DNA of 64,000 nucleotides from Vulcanimicrobiaceae bacterium (GCA_035279385.1 DATEHZ010000061.1:4310-68309); one strand, 5' to 3'; positions 16,724-21,591 are shown, numbered from the stretch's first letter. The notes: generated by a model from the letters alone, not told the origin. Numbers and translations: made by a program.

Positions 16724-19700
16724 TTAGCGGCCTGCGAGAGCCCGCACGTCGTAGCGAACCGCACGAGCGCCGCCTGGCGCGTAGGTGAGCGTGACGAGCG
16801 CGTCCGTGTCGTGACGCTGGATATCCGCGCCTTGCACGCCGCCGCGCTCCCACGTTATCGAGAGCACGCGGTGATGCGCGGGTTCGACGAAGTCGATGCC
16901 GTCGCTGCGCCGCAGGATTCGCGTCGTGCGGTCGATCGCGATGGACGAAAGTTCTTGCGCGCGCTGCGATGTCGAATCCGCAAATGCCGCGCGGAGCGTG
17001 ACGGTAAATCCGCCATCTCGCATGGCGATCGTTTTTCGAAACGTCGCGCCGTGCGGCGGCGCATCCGGGGCCGAGTACGTAAACGTCGCGCTGCGGCCGT
17101 CACTATGCACATCTTCGGCGTAGCAGCGGTTGAACGTGCCCGCCGGAATCGGATGCGTGTACTTCGCGATATAATCGCGCGCCGACGGCGGACTCTCCCG
17201 CATCCACGCATCTCGCAGCCCGCCGACCGTCGTGAACAAATTGTCCGAGCGGGCGGTATCTTCGAACACGAGCGCGCGCGCGCCGGCGCACGGTGAGACG
17301 ATAAGGCGCAGCGCCGCACTCTCGAACACGACGGCGGGATAACCGTCGCTATAGACGTCGGCTTTATAGGCGACCGGACGATCGACAAACGCCCGGAGCG
17401 CCGCGGTTGCTATCCAGCTGCCCGCGCGCAGCGGCACGGCGTTGCGGTGCGGTGCAGAAGGAGCGGGAGCGGACGCGACCGTTTCGGGCGCGTTCGCCGC
17501 CGCGGCGAGCGGAACGAGCAGCGCATCGCGCGCCGGAACCGTTTGCGCCGGAACGTTCGCCGAGAATGCACCTGAATGCACGTGCGCGGCGCGCGTCCGT
17601 AGCGTCGTGCGGCCGTAGTTGACGATATCGAGGAACGCAAACCGTCCGTTCGCCGACACGAGCAGCGCCGCATTCGAAATGCCGCCCGCAGCGGGTGAAG
17701 CGACACGTGCAGCGCGAGCGCTGCCGATCGTGCGTCCGCCCTGGGCGCGGTACGCGCGAAGTTTGCGCTGCACCGCCGGAACGTAGGGCGTCGCTGCGCC
17801 GTTCGGCGGCAAAATCAAGACCGGATATCGCTGCAGATCGTTCGCGGATATGTAACGCAAATCGACGAGCGAGCAGGTGATGCGCATGATGCGGCAGCCG
17901 CGCTGCGCGTCCATCGTCGCCTGCGCGATCTGCGCCACGCGATCGTTCGTCATGCGGGACGCATCGTATGCGCTCGTCAGATACGCGATTGCCGCGTCCG
18001 CCGCGCGGTGCGTTTGCGCGAGCAGCGCGCCGTAGCGCGCAACGAGGCGCCCGAAGCGCGCCGTCGGCGACCAGCGCGCCTGCCGCGTCGTTTGTACGGA
18101 GAGCGCCGCATCCCAGGAGTAAAACGCGTTGGTCCACGGCGCTTCCCACCCGGCGGGGTAGAGCGTATCCTGCACCGGGAAATTTACGATGCCGTGCGCG
18201 CCCATCTGCAGCAGCGTGTGCAGCGCGAGCGTGGTGTTCGCCGGGTCCGCCGGGCGCGGCACGGGTTGATCCGCGCCCTGCAGCCACCCGGCTTGAAACT
18301 CGCCGATCATGACCGGCCGTTGGGGCTGCGTCGCCAGCAATCCCGTCGAAAATTCGAGCTGGGTACGATCGTGCTCGCCGATGCTGTACGCGTCGCTTTG
18401 ATACCAGTCGCCCCACGCCCACGCGGGCGCCGACGCCGTGACCTTCATGTCGAACGTGTTGATGAAGAGCGGAGCATCGGGCGCAGCACCGCGCACGACC
18501 GACGCGAGATACGAAATGTACCGGTGAAAATGCGGCCCCGGCCACGTGTCGTTATCCAGGTACGCGCCTTGATCGTCGTCGAGCGCGATGCCGATGAGGT
18601 CGTGTTGCCACGGCGCGAGCGTACGCAGCACGGTCTTCAGCCAACGAACGGCGTAGCGCATGTGCACGGGGTTGTTCATCCATTCTTGCGCCGCCGCATC
18701 GGAATGCGCGTTCTGCAGCGTTGCCGTCGCCGGGTAGCGTCCTTCCAGAACGTCACGCAGCGGCATGCGGTATTGCGGACGCTCCAGCAGCCACGCCGGG
18801 TAACCGCCGTTGCGCCACTCGTTGCGTATCACGGGGCCCGGCCGCAGCACCACTTTAAATCCGTCGTCGTGAATGAGTTTGAAAAGCCCCACGAGATCGC
18901 GCCGCGGATTCGTGCGGCCGGTGAAGTCGAAATCGCCGTCGCGCAGTTCGTGCCAGTTCCAGATCGCGTACACGTCGATCGTGTTGATGCCCATCGCCTT
19001 GTAGCGTTCGAGGTCGTTTTGCCACTCTTCGCGCGGGATGCGTTCGTAGAAGAAGGCCGCGCCGTACATGAAAAACGGCTGCTGCGTCTGCGCGCGCGCC
19101 GGAGCCGCTGCGAACGCAATTGTCGCGAGCGCGAACAGGCCTGCCGTAACGCGCGCCGCGAAGGGCCACGCGCGCTGCGCTCGCGCAAGGCCGAGGTAGG
19201 CGATGACGCCCACGGCAAGCCAGGCCACACCAAGTGCGATGGGCCGGGGCCCCGTGCTGACGAACGCGTAGCACCAGCCGGCAAGCGCGATCAGCGCGGG
19301 AAGCGGATAGAGCCACATGCGGAACGGCGCGCGTTCGCCGCGGATGCGCAGTGCGAAGAGCGCGCCGATTTGTGCGATGTTTCCGGTCAGTATTGCGGCT
19401 GCGCTGAGCAGCGCGATGACGTCCACCAAGTTGAAGAAGCATCCCGCAATGGAGACCGCCCCGATCCCGAGCAGCGCAACGTGCGGAAACTGCTTGGACG
19501 GATGCAGCTTCGCGAACCAGGGGAGAAACGCGCCGTCGCGCGCTGCGGCGAACGGCACGCGCGCGGCGCCGGCGAGATTGCCGTACAGCGAGGCGAAAGC
19601 CGTCAGCAAGATGAGCGCCGTTACGGCGACTGCCGCTTGCCAGCCCCATGCGTTCTGCACCACGGTCGCGCCGACGAACTGCGATTGCGGCGTCGGATGA

Positions 19701-20494
19701 CCGTTTGCGTCGAGCAGCGACTGCCACGGCACACCCGAGAGCACGCCGATCTGCAAGAAGACGTACAGTGCCAGAACGATGAGAATTGCCCACACGATCG
19801 CGAGCGGCAGCGTGCGCTGCGGCTGCTGCACCTCTTCCCCGACGAGCGCGATTTGCGCGTAGCCGGCGTAGTCGTACAGCGTGATGAAGAGCGCGCTTCC
19901 CAAGCCCGTGACGAATCCCCAGCCCAGCGAGAGTGGCGCCGCAGCGGAAAACGCGCGGTGCACGTCGCCGTGTGAGAATCCCGCTATGCCGACGATGAGC
20001 AGCGTCGCAACGGCGGCCACGCCCAGGTACGCCGCAAGATTCGCAACGGCGGTGATGCGGCGATACACGAATGCGATGCTGACCAAACCGATGCCGACGG
20101 CAATTGCATGCGTGACGTTCGGATCGTTCGCCGCCGGCGGAAAGACGTACCCTGCGTACTGCGCGAAGCCGATGTAGCCGGTTGCAATCGTCAGCCCGCT
20201 GCTTAGAAAAAACTGCCAATTGAAGAGAAAGGCGAACAGGCGTCCCCAACTATTGGCGCCGAAGACGTCGCGCAGATAGGCGTACGTGCCGCCCGCACCG
20301 GGATAGCGCGAGCCCAATTCCGCCCATACCAGCCCGTCGCACAGCGCGACCAGCGCGCCCGCAATCCAGCCGGTAAGTGCGAGGGGACCGGCGAGCTGCG
20401 CGAGCACCAGCGGAATCGTGATGAGCGGTCCGATGCCGATCATCGTGATGACGTTGAGCGCAATGGCGCCGCGCAGGTTGATGCCGCGGATCAT
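16724..20494 (-). CDS. Fusion ORF: APC-family amino-acid permease (about aa 1-470) + GH35 beta-galactosidase-like domain and C-terminal beta-rich region
   Basis: N-terminal IGIGPLITIP.. with multiple TMs. After ..AAPARAQTQQ comes MGINTIDVYAIWNWHE..DFDFTG..VVLRPGPVIRNEWRNGGYPAWL, the GH35 signature. Single uninterrupted 1256-aa frame. Confidence 0.7.
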   Translation of the reverse strand: MIRGINLRGAIALNVITMIGIGPLITIPLVLAQLAGPLALTGWIAGALVALCDGLVWAELGSRYPGAGGTYAYLRDVFGANSWGRLFAFLFNWQFFLSSGLTIATGYIGFAQYAGYVFPPAANDPNVTHAIAVGIGLVSIAFVYRRITAVANLAAYLGVAAVATLLIVGIAGFSHGDVHRAFSAAAPLSLGWGFVTGLGSALFITLYDYAGYAQIALVGEEVQQPQRTLPLAIVWAILIVLALYVFLQIGVLSGVPWQSLLDANGHPTPQSQFVGATVVQNAWGWQAAVAVTALILLTAFASLYGNLAGAARVPFAAARDGAFLPWFAKLHPSKQFPHVALLGIGAVSIAGCFFNLVDVIALLSAAAILTGNIAQIGALFALRIRGERAPFRMWLYPLPALIALAGWCYAFVSTGPRPIALGVAWLAVGVIAYLGLARAQRAWPFAARVTAGLFALATIAFAAAPARAQTQQPFFMYGAAFFYERIPREEWQNDLERYKAMGINTIDVYAIWNWHELRDGDFDFTGRTNPRRDLVGLFKLIHDDGFKVVLRPGPVIRNEWRNGGYPAWLLERPQYRMPLRDVLEGRYPATATLQNAHSDAAAQEWMNNPVHMRYAVRWLKTVLRTLAPWQHDLIGIALDDDQGAYLDNDTWPGPHFHRYISYLASVVRGAAPDAPLFINTFDMKVTASAPAWAWGDWYQSDAYSIGEHDRTQLEFSTGLLATQPQRPVMIGEFQAGWLQGADQPVPRPADPANTTLALHTLLQMGAHGIVNFPVQDTLYPAGWEAPWTNAFYSWDAALSVQTTRQARWSPTARFGRLVARYGALLAQTHRAADAAIAYLTSAYDASRMTNDRVAQIAQATMDAQRGCRIMRITCSLVDLRYISANDLQRYPVLILPPNGAATPYVPAVQRKLRAYRAQGGRTIGSARAARVASPAAGGISNAALLVSANGRFAFLDIVNYGRTTLRTRAAHVHSGAFSANVPAQTVPARDALLVPLAAAANAPETVASAPAPSAPHRNAVPLRAGSWIATAALRAFVDRPVAYKADVYSDGYPAVVFESAALRLIVSPCAGARALVFEDTARSDNLFTTVGGLRDAWMRESPPSARDYIAKYTHPIPAGTFNRCYAEDVHSDGRSATFTYSAPDAPPHGATFRKTIAMRDGGFTVTLRAAFADSTSQRAQELSSIAIDRTTRILRRSDGIDFVEPAHHRVLSITWERGGVQGADIQRHDTDALVTLTYAPGGARAVRYDVRALAGR

Positions 20495-20547: not shown

Positions 20548-21591
20548 ATGACGGACAAGCGCACCACGCTCGCGCGCCTCATGCGATTGCAAGGCGACGT
20601 GCGCGTCGATTTCATCACCAGTCCCGCGCTGCAGGGCAATGCGCTCGGCGATCCGGCGGAGCGGCCCGTAGCGGTGTACCTGCCGCCGCATTACGATCCC
20701 GAAGGTTCGAAGCGGTATCCGGTGCTGTATTGCCTGCACGGATACACGGGCGACGTCGCGGCATTGCTCGGCGCCCGTCCGTGGGAGTGGAACGTCGTGC
20801 AGCGTATCGATCGCCTCATCGCGGGTTTGCAGATGGAACCGGCGCTGCTCGTGGTCGTCGACGGTTTCACGCGCCTGGGCGGTTCGCAATACGTCGATTC
20901 GATTCATAACGGCGATTACGCGACCTACGTTACGCGCGACGTGATCGGCCACGTGGACCGCACTTATCGAACCGTCGCGTCGGAGGGCGGCCGCGCCGTG
21001 CTCGGCAAGTCGTCCGGGGGCTTTGGTTCGCTGCATCTCTGCATGAACTATCCCGGGTTCTTCGCCGCGTTCGCCTCGCACAGCGGCGACTCGTATTTTC
21101 GTTACGCGGATCCGCCGCTGTTCGTGCAAGCACAGCGCACGCTGGAGAAGCACGGCTGGAACGTCGGCAAATTCGTGGAGCATTTCGAGGAGGCGAACAA
21201 ACGTCCGCAGAGCGATTACTCCACGATGGAATTTCTCGGCTATGCGTCTGCGTATTCACCGCGCAGTGCGAACGCGTTCGACATCGAGTTGCCGTTCGAC
21301 CGGAATACCGGCGAGCTGCGTGAGGACGTGTGGGCGCGGTGGCTTGCGTTCGACCCGGTAGAGATTTGCCGGGACAAGCAAGCGGAACTGGCGCGCCTAC
21401 GCTTGCGTTACTTGGACTGCGGCCGGCGCGACGAATACGCGCTGGACGTCGGGGCGCGCATCCTCGCAGCCCGCATGCGGGAGATGGGCCTGGAGGTGCG
21501 CCACGAAGAGTTCGACGACGATCATCGAAACGTCGGATACCGCTACGATGTGTCGCTGCCGGCATTGGCCGGCGTCTTGGAGAGAGCATGA
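20548..21591 (+). CDS. Esterase family protein (enterochelin-esterase/esterase D-like alpha/beta hydrolase)
   Basis: YLPPHYDP..RYPVLYCLHGYTGD and GKSSGGFGSL (GxSxG). Confidence 0.75.
   Translation: MTDKRTTLARLMRLQGDVRVDFITSPALQGNALGDPAERPVAVYLPPHYDPEGSKRYPVLYCLHGYTGDVAALLGARPWEWNVVQRIDRLIAGLQMEPALLVVVDGFTRLGGSQYVDSIHNGDYATYVTRDVIGHVDRTYRTVASEGGRAVLGKSSGGFGSLHLCMNYPGFFAAFASHSGDSYFRYADPPLFVQAQRTLEKHGWNVGKFVEHFEEANKRPQSDYSTMEFLGYASAYSPRSANAFDIELPFDRNTGELREDVWARWLAFDPVEICRDKQAELARLRLRYLDCGRRDEYALDVGARILAARMREMGLEVRHEEFDDDHRNVGYRYDVSLPALAGVLERA

Follow-up and report, generated by a model that had tools for sequence, protein, structure and literature searches.

Three described systems come closest to a fused protein encoded in a 64,000-nucleotide stretch of DNA from a Vulcanimicrobiaceae bacterium (GCA_035279385.1 DATEHZ010000061.1:4310-68309), here called the window, in which a 1256-residue open reading frame (ORF) joins an amino-acid permease of the APC superfamily to an enzyme related to glycoside hydrolase family 35 (GH35). 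For the enzyme, the best match in both sequence and fold is archaeal GlmA, which like the window enzyme is ~780 residues long and is built in the order TIM barrel, alpha/beta domain and beta domain. The pair Asp178-Glu179 of GlmA stands in for the Asn-Glu of the beta-galactosidases, with Asp178 binding the C2-ammonium of glucosamine and Glu179 serving as acid/base; the nucleophile is Glu347 (PMC6566704). The window enzyme shares an Asp before the acid/base position, the one that contacts the C2 amino group in GlmA. However, the two enzymes show ~14% identity over the structure, with sequence similarity limited to the first ~100-170 residues, and they differ in the acid/base residue (Glu in GlmA, Asp here), in a pocket motif (CGEW in GlmA, RNEW here, placing Arg557 where GlmA has Cys) and in location, GlmA being cytoplasmic and the window enzyme predicted to be exported.

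The gene organization is matched by the cytochrome b-c1 fusion (FbcH) of Bradyrhizobiaceae, in which a polytopic inner-membrane protein and a periplasmic protein are likewise encoded by one ORF with an internal signal-peptide-like segment. The FbcH precursor is reportedly cleaved at this internal signal sequence (Thöny-Meyer's work). The fused cytochrome b/c1 genes themselves are documented (PMC4986455). FbcH differs in that its halves are subunits of one complex, whereas nothing in the window protein shows that the two halves work together. A third likeness is to the heteromeric amino acid transporters (HATs), composed of an SLC7 LAT light chain and an SLC3 heavy chain, which also combine a LAT-type permease, one extra helix and an extracellular TIM barrel of glycosidase fold in the same topology. 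HATs consist of two disulfide-linked polypeptides that also share a conserved helix-helix interface, and the ectodomain of the single-pass heavy chain is GH13-like. That ectodomain is not homologous to the GH35-type ectodomain of the window protein, in which moreover the linker looks cleavable, no interface is predicted, and the extra helix is modeled at a predicted local distance difference test (pLDDT) score of only ~60. We therefore treat the HAT likeness as an analogy at most and not as membership. Both halves belong to known families and the principle of one precursor for two proteins is already known from the cytochrome b-c1 fusion; a literature search found no description of an APC-GH35 fusion.

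The fusion of an APC permease to a GH35-like enzyme is genuine and conserved in one family of uncultured soil bacteria (Eremiobacterota: Vulcanimicrobiaceae). We consider that this old fusion probably acts as a precursor of two proteins, with the following parts:

16724..20494, minus strand: the whole fused ORF, with an ATG start, 1256 amino acids and a stop codon at 16724-16726
19160..20494, minus strand: APC-superfamily permease, residues 1-445, with 12 transmembrane helices, LAT/SLC7-like, ending in the conserved cytoplasmic tail R-x-WPF
19091..19159, minus strand: predicted internal signal peptide, residues 446-468 (AARVTAGLFALATIAFAAAPARA), an h-region followed by the c-region P465-A466-R467-A468
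19091-19093 (A468) and 19088-19090 (Q469), minus strand: the two codons between which signal peptidase I is predicted to cut
17996..19090, minus strand: GH35-like (beta/alpha)8 catalytic barrel, residues 469-833, supported by Pfam (471-577), AlphaFold2 (AF2) and Foldseek
17705..17995, minus strand: alpha/beta domain, residues ~834-930, delimited by AF2 secondary structure, with the invariant pair C867/C874 and equivalent to domain II of GlmA and GH42
16727..17704, minus strand: beta domains, residues ~931-1256, delimited by AF2 and conservation

The ORF is the longest frame of its region, has no internal stop in translation and keeps an even G+C content of 0.62-0.70 along its length. In its product, Pfam identified AA_permease_2 (PF13520) at residues 9-413 with 128 bits and Glyco_hydro_35 (PF01301) at residues 471-577 with 112 bits, each against a cut-off of 27; PF00324 also matched the permease half with 75 bits. 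An earlier annotation made from the sequence alone (the sequence-only reading) had described a single ORF of this composition, and the Pfam domains together with the same frame in more than 100 protein clusters agree with it; the strings it quoted (FAAAPARA/QTQQP, GINTIDVYAIWNWHE, DFDFTG and LRPGPVIRNEWRNGGYPAWL) are all present in the translation. Its assignment of a GH35 domain holds at the level of the profile, but only one third of the Pfam model, at its start (positions 6-108 of 319), is matched, and the rest of the barrel is recognizable by fold alone.

Among 5.8 billion protein clusters searched, more than 100 contain fused homologs over their full length (1230-1390 residues), with the same two Pfam domains and 49-81% identity, originating from NCBI, JGI, ENA and Logan assemblies; those that are named carry the label 'amino acid permease' only. 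A scan with one genome per species found 253 relatives, and the best 80 of these loci, at 45-75% identity, have the fused layout. These 80 belong to the Eremiobacterota/Vulcanimicrobiota, and the two bins among them labeled Binatia and Verrucomicrobiia are probably mis-binned. Of the 301 sampled genomes of the phylum, 205 have a match, 202 of them in the Vulcanimicrobiaceae (of which 'Baltobacteraceae' is a synonym according to NCBI); the other three belong to the same class and have the free permease only. Among the matches listed, roughly 115 of ~148 family genomes carry the fused layout. The fusion is spread over dozens of genera, and recurrence of one uninterrupted frame on this scale far exceeds chance.

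These comparative data also bear on whether the frame is simply a pair of neighboring genes run together through an indel of sequencing or assembly, or through recent loss of a stop codon in one genome, as the sequence-only reading had allowed. A few relatives have damaged copies that could be read in favor of such an event, one with an in-frame TGA (G073) and one with a 5'-truncated permease half (G253/L016). The fusion is nevertheless not an artifact, because the same in-frame junction is present in more than 100 independent assemblies from differing groups and technologies, several of them on megabase contigs or complete long-read, single-contig chromosomes. In addition, the architecture is uninterrupted at an overall 45-83% identity, with purifying selection on both halves, and no intergenic remnant is seen, the fused proteins running from WPF straight into the h-region at the point where the free permease ends. 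We give the artifact explanation practically no weight.

The junction has the features of a Sec-type signal peptide in all but position. The n-region is provided by the permease tail (R438, R441 and R448, of which R438 and R441 are conserved), and the loop before hydrophobic segment 13 is basic, with the tail ARAQRAWPF. The h-region falls within the ~7-15 residues expected (median 13) and is followed by a helix-breaker and by small residues at -3 and -1. Only an N-terminal location is lacking in the fused form, where 445 permease residues precede. Across 107 homologs, the uncharged stretch is 10-17 residues long with a median of 13, the window protein having 16, at the long end of the range. 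We assessed the signal-peptidase site by our own per-column residue counts over the aligned homologs: Pro occupies -4 in 80%, Ala, Leu, Val, Thr or Ser occupies -3 in 82%, and Ala occupies -1 in 93% (Ala, Ser or Gly in 97%), whereas the adjoining Ala-rich columns contain only about 50-60% Ala. The -2 column is hypervariable (Arg, His, Pro, Gln). Directly after residue 468, QTQQPFF forms the first strand of the enzyme. The bare presence of an A-x-A near the end of the h-region, found in 93 of the 107 homologs, is weak in an Ala-rich sequence and was dropped as evidence in favor of the column statistics.

In the structure prediction, the pLDDT over residues 441-470 was 65/59/42, the least confident part of the chain, and the predicted template modeling score (pTM) was 0.65 for the whole chain compared to 0.89 for the enzyme alone. 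Because of this low linker confidence and whole-chain score, no fixed interface between the halves is predicted. In position, the linker corresponds to the signal peptide with which unfused orthologs begin, and free orthologs at the syntenic locus have an N-terminal Sec signal peptide exactly there. The last hydrophobic segment, whose end the sequence-only reading had likened to a former signal-peptidase site, is indeed a signal peptide. Likewise, the proposal that the GH35 part faces outward stands. Solved LAT-type homologs have both termini in the cytoplasm, and export of the enzyme is well supported by this inside-inside APC topology, by the basic character of the loop, by the N-terminal signal peptides of the orthologs and by the Cys pair, which is invariant. 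Taken from the sequence comparisons, the junction is the enzyme's own export signal, with a predicted signal-peptidase site kept under selection. The source genome encodes three signal peptidase I genes (TIGR02227) in tandem within 1.9 kb (G000:C59:7804-9687, outside the window).

The same segment could instead be an uncleaved tether. In this alternative, which is essentially the idea of the sequence-only reading, segment 13 acts as a signal-anchor and the glycosidase stays attached above the permease, either feeding it a product such as an amine-bearing sugar or modulating it, so that the protein would be a single-chain analog of the eukaryotic HATs. The topology of the HAT heavy chain, with its N-terminus inside, one helix and a TIM-barrel ectodomain outside, is matched, and the 16-residue hydrophobic stretch of the window protein would suit an anchor better than the shorter ones. 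However, a median of 13 uncharged residues is short for a stable membrane-crossing helix, the conserved Pro(-4)/Ala(-3)/Ala(-1) pattern would have no role in an anchor, and the segment and linker are the least confident part of the model, with no interface predicted. We consider the tether, the main rival to a cleaved precursor, unlikely, though it keeps some weight because most genera have retained the fusion. In the precursor reading, by contrast, the conserved pattern is a cleavage site, and cleavage by signal peptidase I after Ala468 is fairly likely. It is suggested by the short h-region, the selected -4/-3/-1 pattern, the interchangeability of fused and free forms, the lack of a predicted interface and the three signal peptidase I genes.

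Fused and free forms could be compared directly because the enzyme part also occurs alone, in about 30 of ~148 genomes among the matches listed, in open frames of 780-1000 residues. We extracted 26 enzyme-only loci, six of them with long flanks. In the 11 of 26 where the N-terminus was readable, the gene begins with an ordinary N-terminal signal peptide, for example MRLVVLALALAVFAPCAARA|SD, MRRLIALALLVIAMASAPLAARA|ET and MPIRRLIRALLALALLLFPLHARA|AS, where the bar marks the end of the signal peptide. No permease homolog was found within 5 kb of the enzyme-only gene in the six loci with long flanks. The free enzyme genes share the locus of the fused gene, with the same divergent esterase followed by the same cystathionine lyase. 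In the window, this esterase is

20548..21591, plus strand: CE1-like (feruloyl/carbohydrate esterase-like) esterase, Pfam PF00756, with esterases and ferulic acid esterases as PDB matches, no signal peptide and a predicted cytoplasmic location

It is divergent from the fusion gene across a 53-nt gap. An esterase of this type adjoins the enzyme gene in 71 of 80 fused loci and in eight of eight further loci (seven unfused and the fused G099), and is absent beside the free permease within flanks of ~1.5 kb. The two genes may form a co-regulated unit acting on an esterified glycoside. As a guide to substrate, the neighborhood otherwise showed no sugar kinase, deacetylase or chitosanase nearby, and the CE1-like esterase is the one neighbor that accompanies the enzyme; a GGDEF gene, aroA and the cystathionine lyase were set aside as substrate clues, as they look like chromosomal backbone.

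The genus Vulcanimicrobium contains both forms. Vulcanimicrobium alpinus WC8-2 is a published strain, the only cultured member of the phylum, and diderm (PMC9758169). Its genome (G011) is unfused, with a secreted GH35-like gene at ~1.918-1.920 Mb (locus L127, G011:C1:1915500-1922500) and a free APC permease at ~2.450 Mb (L124), about 0.53 Mb away. A second Vulcanimicrobium species (G099) has the fused gene. At the DNA level, the two are 82% identical across the esterase and the intergenic region up to and including the start codon, and the similarity resumes in the enzyme; in between, 85 nt of signal peptide in V. alpinus are matched in G099 by ~1.4 kb that encode the permease. More generally, free orthologs such as that of V. 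alpinus agree with the window in the enzyme (46-57% identity), the locus, the esterase, the start-codon region and the position of the signal peptide, and differ in that a permease segment of ~1.3-1.4 kb is missing and the permease is encoded elsewhere, ending after WPF. Relatives with two separate genes and an independent signal peptide, which had been proposed as a sign that the fusion is erroneous, therefore do exist, but they reflect interconvertible forms and not an artifact. We also looked in the free enzymes for a relic of the permease N-terminus (MIRGIxLRGA); only MSAFRGLRGA in G011 and MLRGMLLR in G202 resemble it, the pattern search was otherwise negative, and the resemblance was not relied on, the DNA comparison of G011 with G099 being the direct evidence.

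The evolutionary history was examined with separate trees of the two halves. For the enzyme domain, the maximum-likelihood tree was built from 105 rows once two contig-end fragments and one long branch had been removed. It mixes fused and free forms, requiring 10 changes by parsimony, and the approximately unbiased test rejected a tree separating fused from free enzymes (delta lnL 1040, p = 0.0003). In the permease tree, rooted on free permeases of a sister family, all 83 fused copies group with one free copy in a clade supported at 99%, and the other free copies form a basal grade. Independent repeated fusions were therefore rejected, all fused permeases belonging to that one clade. None of 14 fused genomes checked has a free permease copy, whereas eight of 11 unfused genomes do, hundreds of kb from the enzyme gene. 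In no genome checked is the permease both fused and free; long co-existence of free and fused paralogs would reconcile the trees, but the two copies occur together in none of the 25. The trees indicate, as the simplest account, that the fusion arose once, long ago, and that the permease half was later lost about 8-10 times in lineages with a free copy. Each loss is a deletion that spares the shared start codon on one side and the signal peptide on the other.

This history does not support the coupled hydrolysis and uptake that the sequence-only reading had suggested for a tethered glycosidase, and neither does the textbook signal-peptidase site under selection at the junction. The permease half was dropped about 8-10 times without loss of the enzyme. 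The enzyme is free and secreted in about 30 listed genomes, one genus keeps it without any orthologous permease, and in unfused genomes the two genes are unlinked.

The permease half belongs, on sequence and fold comparison, to the APC superfamily and is LAT/SLC7-like, with amino-acid-type transport predicted. Hydropathy of the full protein showed 13 hydrophobic segments, which refines the 12-14 transmembrane segments previously counted to the 12 of the APC fold and one short extra segment. The family profile aligned residues 1-437 end to end with the 12-helix structures of xCT, LAT1, y+LAT1 and bacterial BasC, in keeping with a core of 5+5 inverted repeats, and AF2, run as a whole-chain model on the first 1200 residues with the last 56 left out, gave 12 confident permease helices (pLDDT ~90) and one weak helix. 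Scores for the NCBIfam subfamily models fell short of the thresholds, with 122 bits against 557 for TIGR00909 and 105 bits against 702 for TIGR00911 (L-type). Free-standing permease orthologs end a few residues past R-x-WPF, which places the fusion point right after WPF (residue 445). The unwound G-x-G motif of TM1 (M18-G20-I21-G22-P23) and the aromatic/Gly motif of TM6 (Y207-D208-x-x-G211-Y212) are invariant and identical in fused and free permeases, which differ at just 14 class-specific positions, all conservative. That the best solved relatives are the SLC7 LAT/xCT light chains and BasC fits a tethered, HAT-like arrangement; the absence of any specialization in the binding motifs does not.

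The enzyme half, with 788 residues in the exported form, was modeled with confidence (AF2 of residues 439-1256, pLDDT 90.1) as a barrel (~476-833), an alpha/beta domain (~834-930), a small beta domain and a C-terminal beta-sandwich. The earlier description of the region after the catalytic domain as about 450 beta-rich residues thus applies to ~931-1256 but not to ~834-930. Foldseek placed the archaeal GlmA exo-beta-glucosaminidases first (8oug, 6jow, 5gsm, 5gsl), followed by the Ignavibacterium GH35 beta-1,2-glucosyltransferase (7vkw) and then other GH35 and GH42 enzymes; the top 19 matches were all GH35 entries (GlmA, beta-1,2-glucosyltransferase, Desulfurococcus beta-galactosidase) with E values of 1e-24 to 1e-16. 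The alpha/beta and beta domains had no Pfam match, even at E = 1. Two sites lie in the barrel:

18569..18580, minus strand: D639-D640-D641-Q642 at the end of strand beta4, with D640-D641 at the positions of Asn-Glu in GH35 beta-galactosidases and of Asp178-Glu179 in GlmA
18299..18301, minus strand: E732, invariant, the candidate catalytic nucleophile, part of (S/G)EFQAGW where strand beta7 ends (strand 728-733 in the model)

D640-D641-Q642 is invariant in the 107 homologs and stands where N-E-Y would be expected. Its placement is by sequence alignment only, HMMER having aligned the family string ALDDDQGAY with TIDDE of GlmA (5gsl). Compared to the Asn-Glu of GH35, in which the Glu is the acid/base, the strand-4 end thus carries an invariant Asp640-Asp641, and compared to GlmA the Asp is kept (D640), the acid/base position is Asp641, and Arg557 replaces the pocket Cys. 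R557-N558-E559-W560 and the pair C867/C874 are also invariant in these homologs. The EFQAGW motif resembles 'SEFYTGW' of GH35 human GLB1 (E268). The catalytic residues of GLB1 are named in the GlmA study, which also cautions that assigning the nucleophile from sequence is unreliable in this group (PMC6566704). The equivalog model for GlmA-type exo-beta-D-glucosaminidases (NF041127) scored 116 bits against a cut-off of 1500, over residues 473-572 only. By these sequence features, the enzyme is a distinct GH35-related subfamily near GlmA that lacks the Asn/Asp-Glu pair, and a small one, since a cut-off of E <= 1e-30 retains only 153 of 1.8 billion cluster representatives. It is probably catalytically active, with Asp-Asp at the position of Asn-Glu or Asp-Glu and the invariant candidate nucleophile Glu732, and the acidic pocket gives a hint, but only a hint, of a cationic sugar.

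Independent of cleavage, the exported domain may not be a hydrolase at all but a binding, sensing or transglycosylating module, like the inactive glycosidase fold of the HAT heavy chain 4F2hc. The replacement of N-E-Y by D640-D641-Q642 is in line with such a role, as is the second-best structural relative, the Ignavibacterium transglycosylase. Still, the pocket residues (R557, N558, E559, W560, D640, D641, E732 and others) are invariant across the family, the candidate nucleophile Glu is kept in a canonical motif, and Asp is able to act as general acid/base in other glycosidase families. We regard a non-hydrolytic role as improbable. More speculative is an un- or partly cleaved bacterial single-chain counterpart of the HATs in which the Asp-Asp/Arg pocket releases or captures an amine-bearing sugar for uptake by the APC half. 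Amines are carried by APC-superfamily transporters and D640 stands at the position of GlmA Asp178, both of which would suit a tether; even so, we consider this version very doubtful. If true, no earlier APC transporter would be devoted to an amino sugar and joined physically to the enzyme producing its substrate; this one would be the first.

Returning to the precursor, we propose that the 12-helix LAT/SLC7-like permease is translated first and that its cytoplasmic tail, ending in ARAQRAWPF, would give the positive n-region of an internal Sec-type signal peptide, completed by the short h-region and the P-A-x-A c-region. Led by this signal peptide, the enzyme of 788 residues would be threaded through the inner membrane and reach the periplasm; the family's cultured relative is diderm. 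Signal peptidase I would then cut after Ala468, leaving the permease with a 13th, C-terminal helix and freeing a soluble periplasmic glycosidase of three parts (GH35-type barrel, alpha/beta domain and beta domains) related to the archaeal exo-beta-glucosaminidases. We infer that the fused gene serves co-expression and co-targeting of the two products and does not tie hydrolysis mechanistically to transport.

Several points count against this proposal. Cleavage of an internal signal peptide behind 12 helices is not predictable with certainty, and the analysis of the -3/-1 site depends on our own column counts; a minority of homologs have a poor -3 residue or Pro at -2 and would need an alternative site nearby. 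The fusion has long been kept in most genera, so the covalent link itself could be useful. The enzyme and permease trees disagree, which may reflect differential loss of paralogs or transfer of a free permease. Finally, clan GH-A enzymes do not usually have Asp as the acid/base, and activity of the released enzyme is not assured.

Because the 1250-1300-residue proteins are named 'amino acid permease', the exported glycosidase of most Vulcanimicrobiaceae is invisible to surveys of carbohydrate enzymes. The phylum in which it is overlooked is abundant in soil and peat and almost uncultured. The subfamily itself, with Asp-Asp in place of the Asn-Glu of its clan and an Arg in the -1 pocket, could have a new specificity. 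For membrane-protein biogenesis, the locus also amounts to a natural experiment, because one signal peptide is N-terminal in some species and in others comes after twelve transmembrane helices. Having reverted independently about ten times, it offers a clean system for asking when internal signal peptides are cleaved, and V. alpinus WC8-2, cultured and with the unfused form, is a possible host. It further cautions against 'Rosetta-stone' inference, since a long-conserved fusion need not mean functional coupling.

Additional observations concern both halves. The C-terminal beta-sandwich (residues ~1008-1256; 16727-17470, minus strand) is among the most conserved blocks of the protein despite having no Pfam match. 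It contains SPCAGARA, GGLRDAW and RDYIxKYTHPxxxGTFNRxY in this order, with invariant R1094, D1095, D1107, T1113, H1114 and Y1125, and this conservation suggests a functional site and not a passive domain. Distant relatives of the enzyme (P0163-P0229, 34-43% identity) have 1100-1360 residues with an N-terminal GH35-like barrel and long C-terminal extensions, and one of 1538 residues (P0173) has the barrel at residues 389-855. With such extensions or an internal barrel, the subfamily appears to occur in further architectures. The source genome contains a second, more distant free-standing GH35-like gene with a 721-residue frame, matching the domain's first 130 residues at ~39% identity (G000:C20:22047-22412, L003). 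It also has two other APC permease homologs in unusually long frames of 739 and 755 residues, in which extra domains are possible (G000:C61:82924-84150, L002; G000:C104:3974-5269).

The two damaged relatives mentioned above, the fused copy with an in-frame TGA (G073:C3:1107245-1110967) and the copy whose permease half aligns only from residue 187 on (G253:C1:2649798-2652998, the same as L016), may represent stages in the decay of the fusion. The GH35-like frame of both Vulcanimicrobium genomes crosses a same-strand tRNA-Leu(CAA) gene before its first stop (L127 4879-4961, plus strand; L126 2035-2117, minus strand), and the two enzymes share an identical 28-residue tail, GEVAKRYTQSPQKRPSESSCGFESHLPQ, encoded mostly by tRNA DNA. 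Either the 3' end of the coding sequence overlaps the tRNA-Leu gene or the true stop or terminus is unusual.

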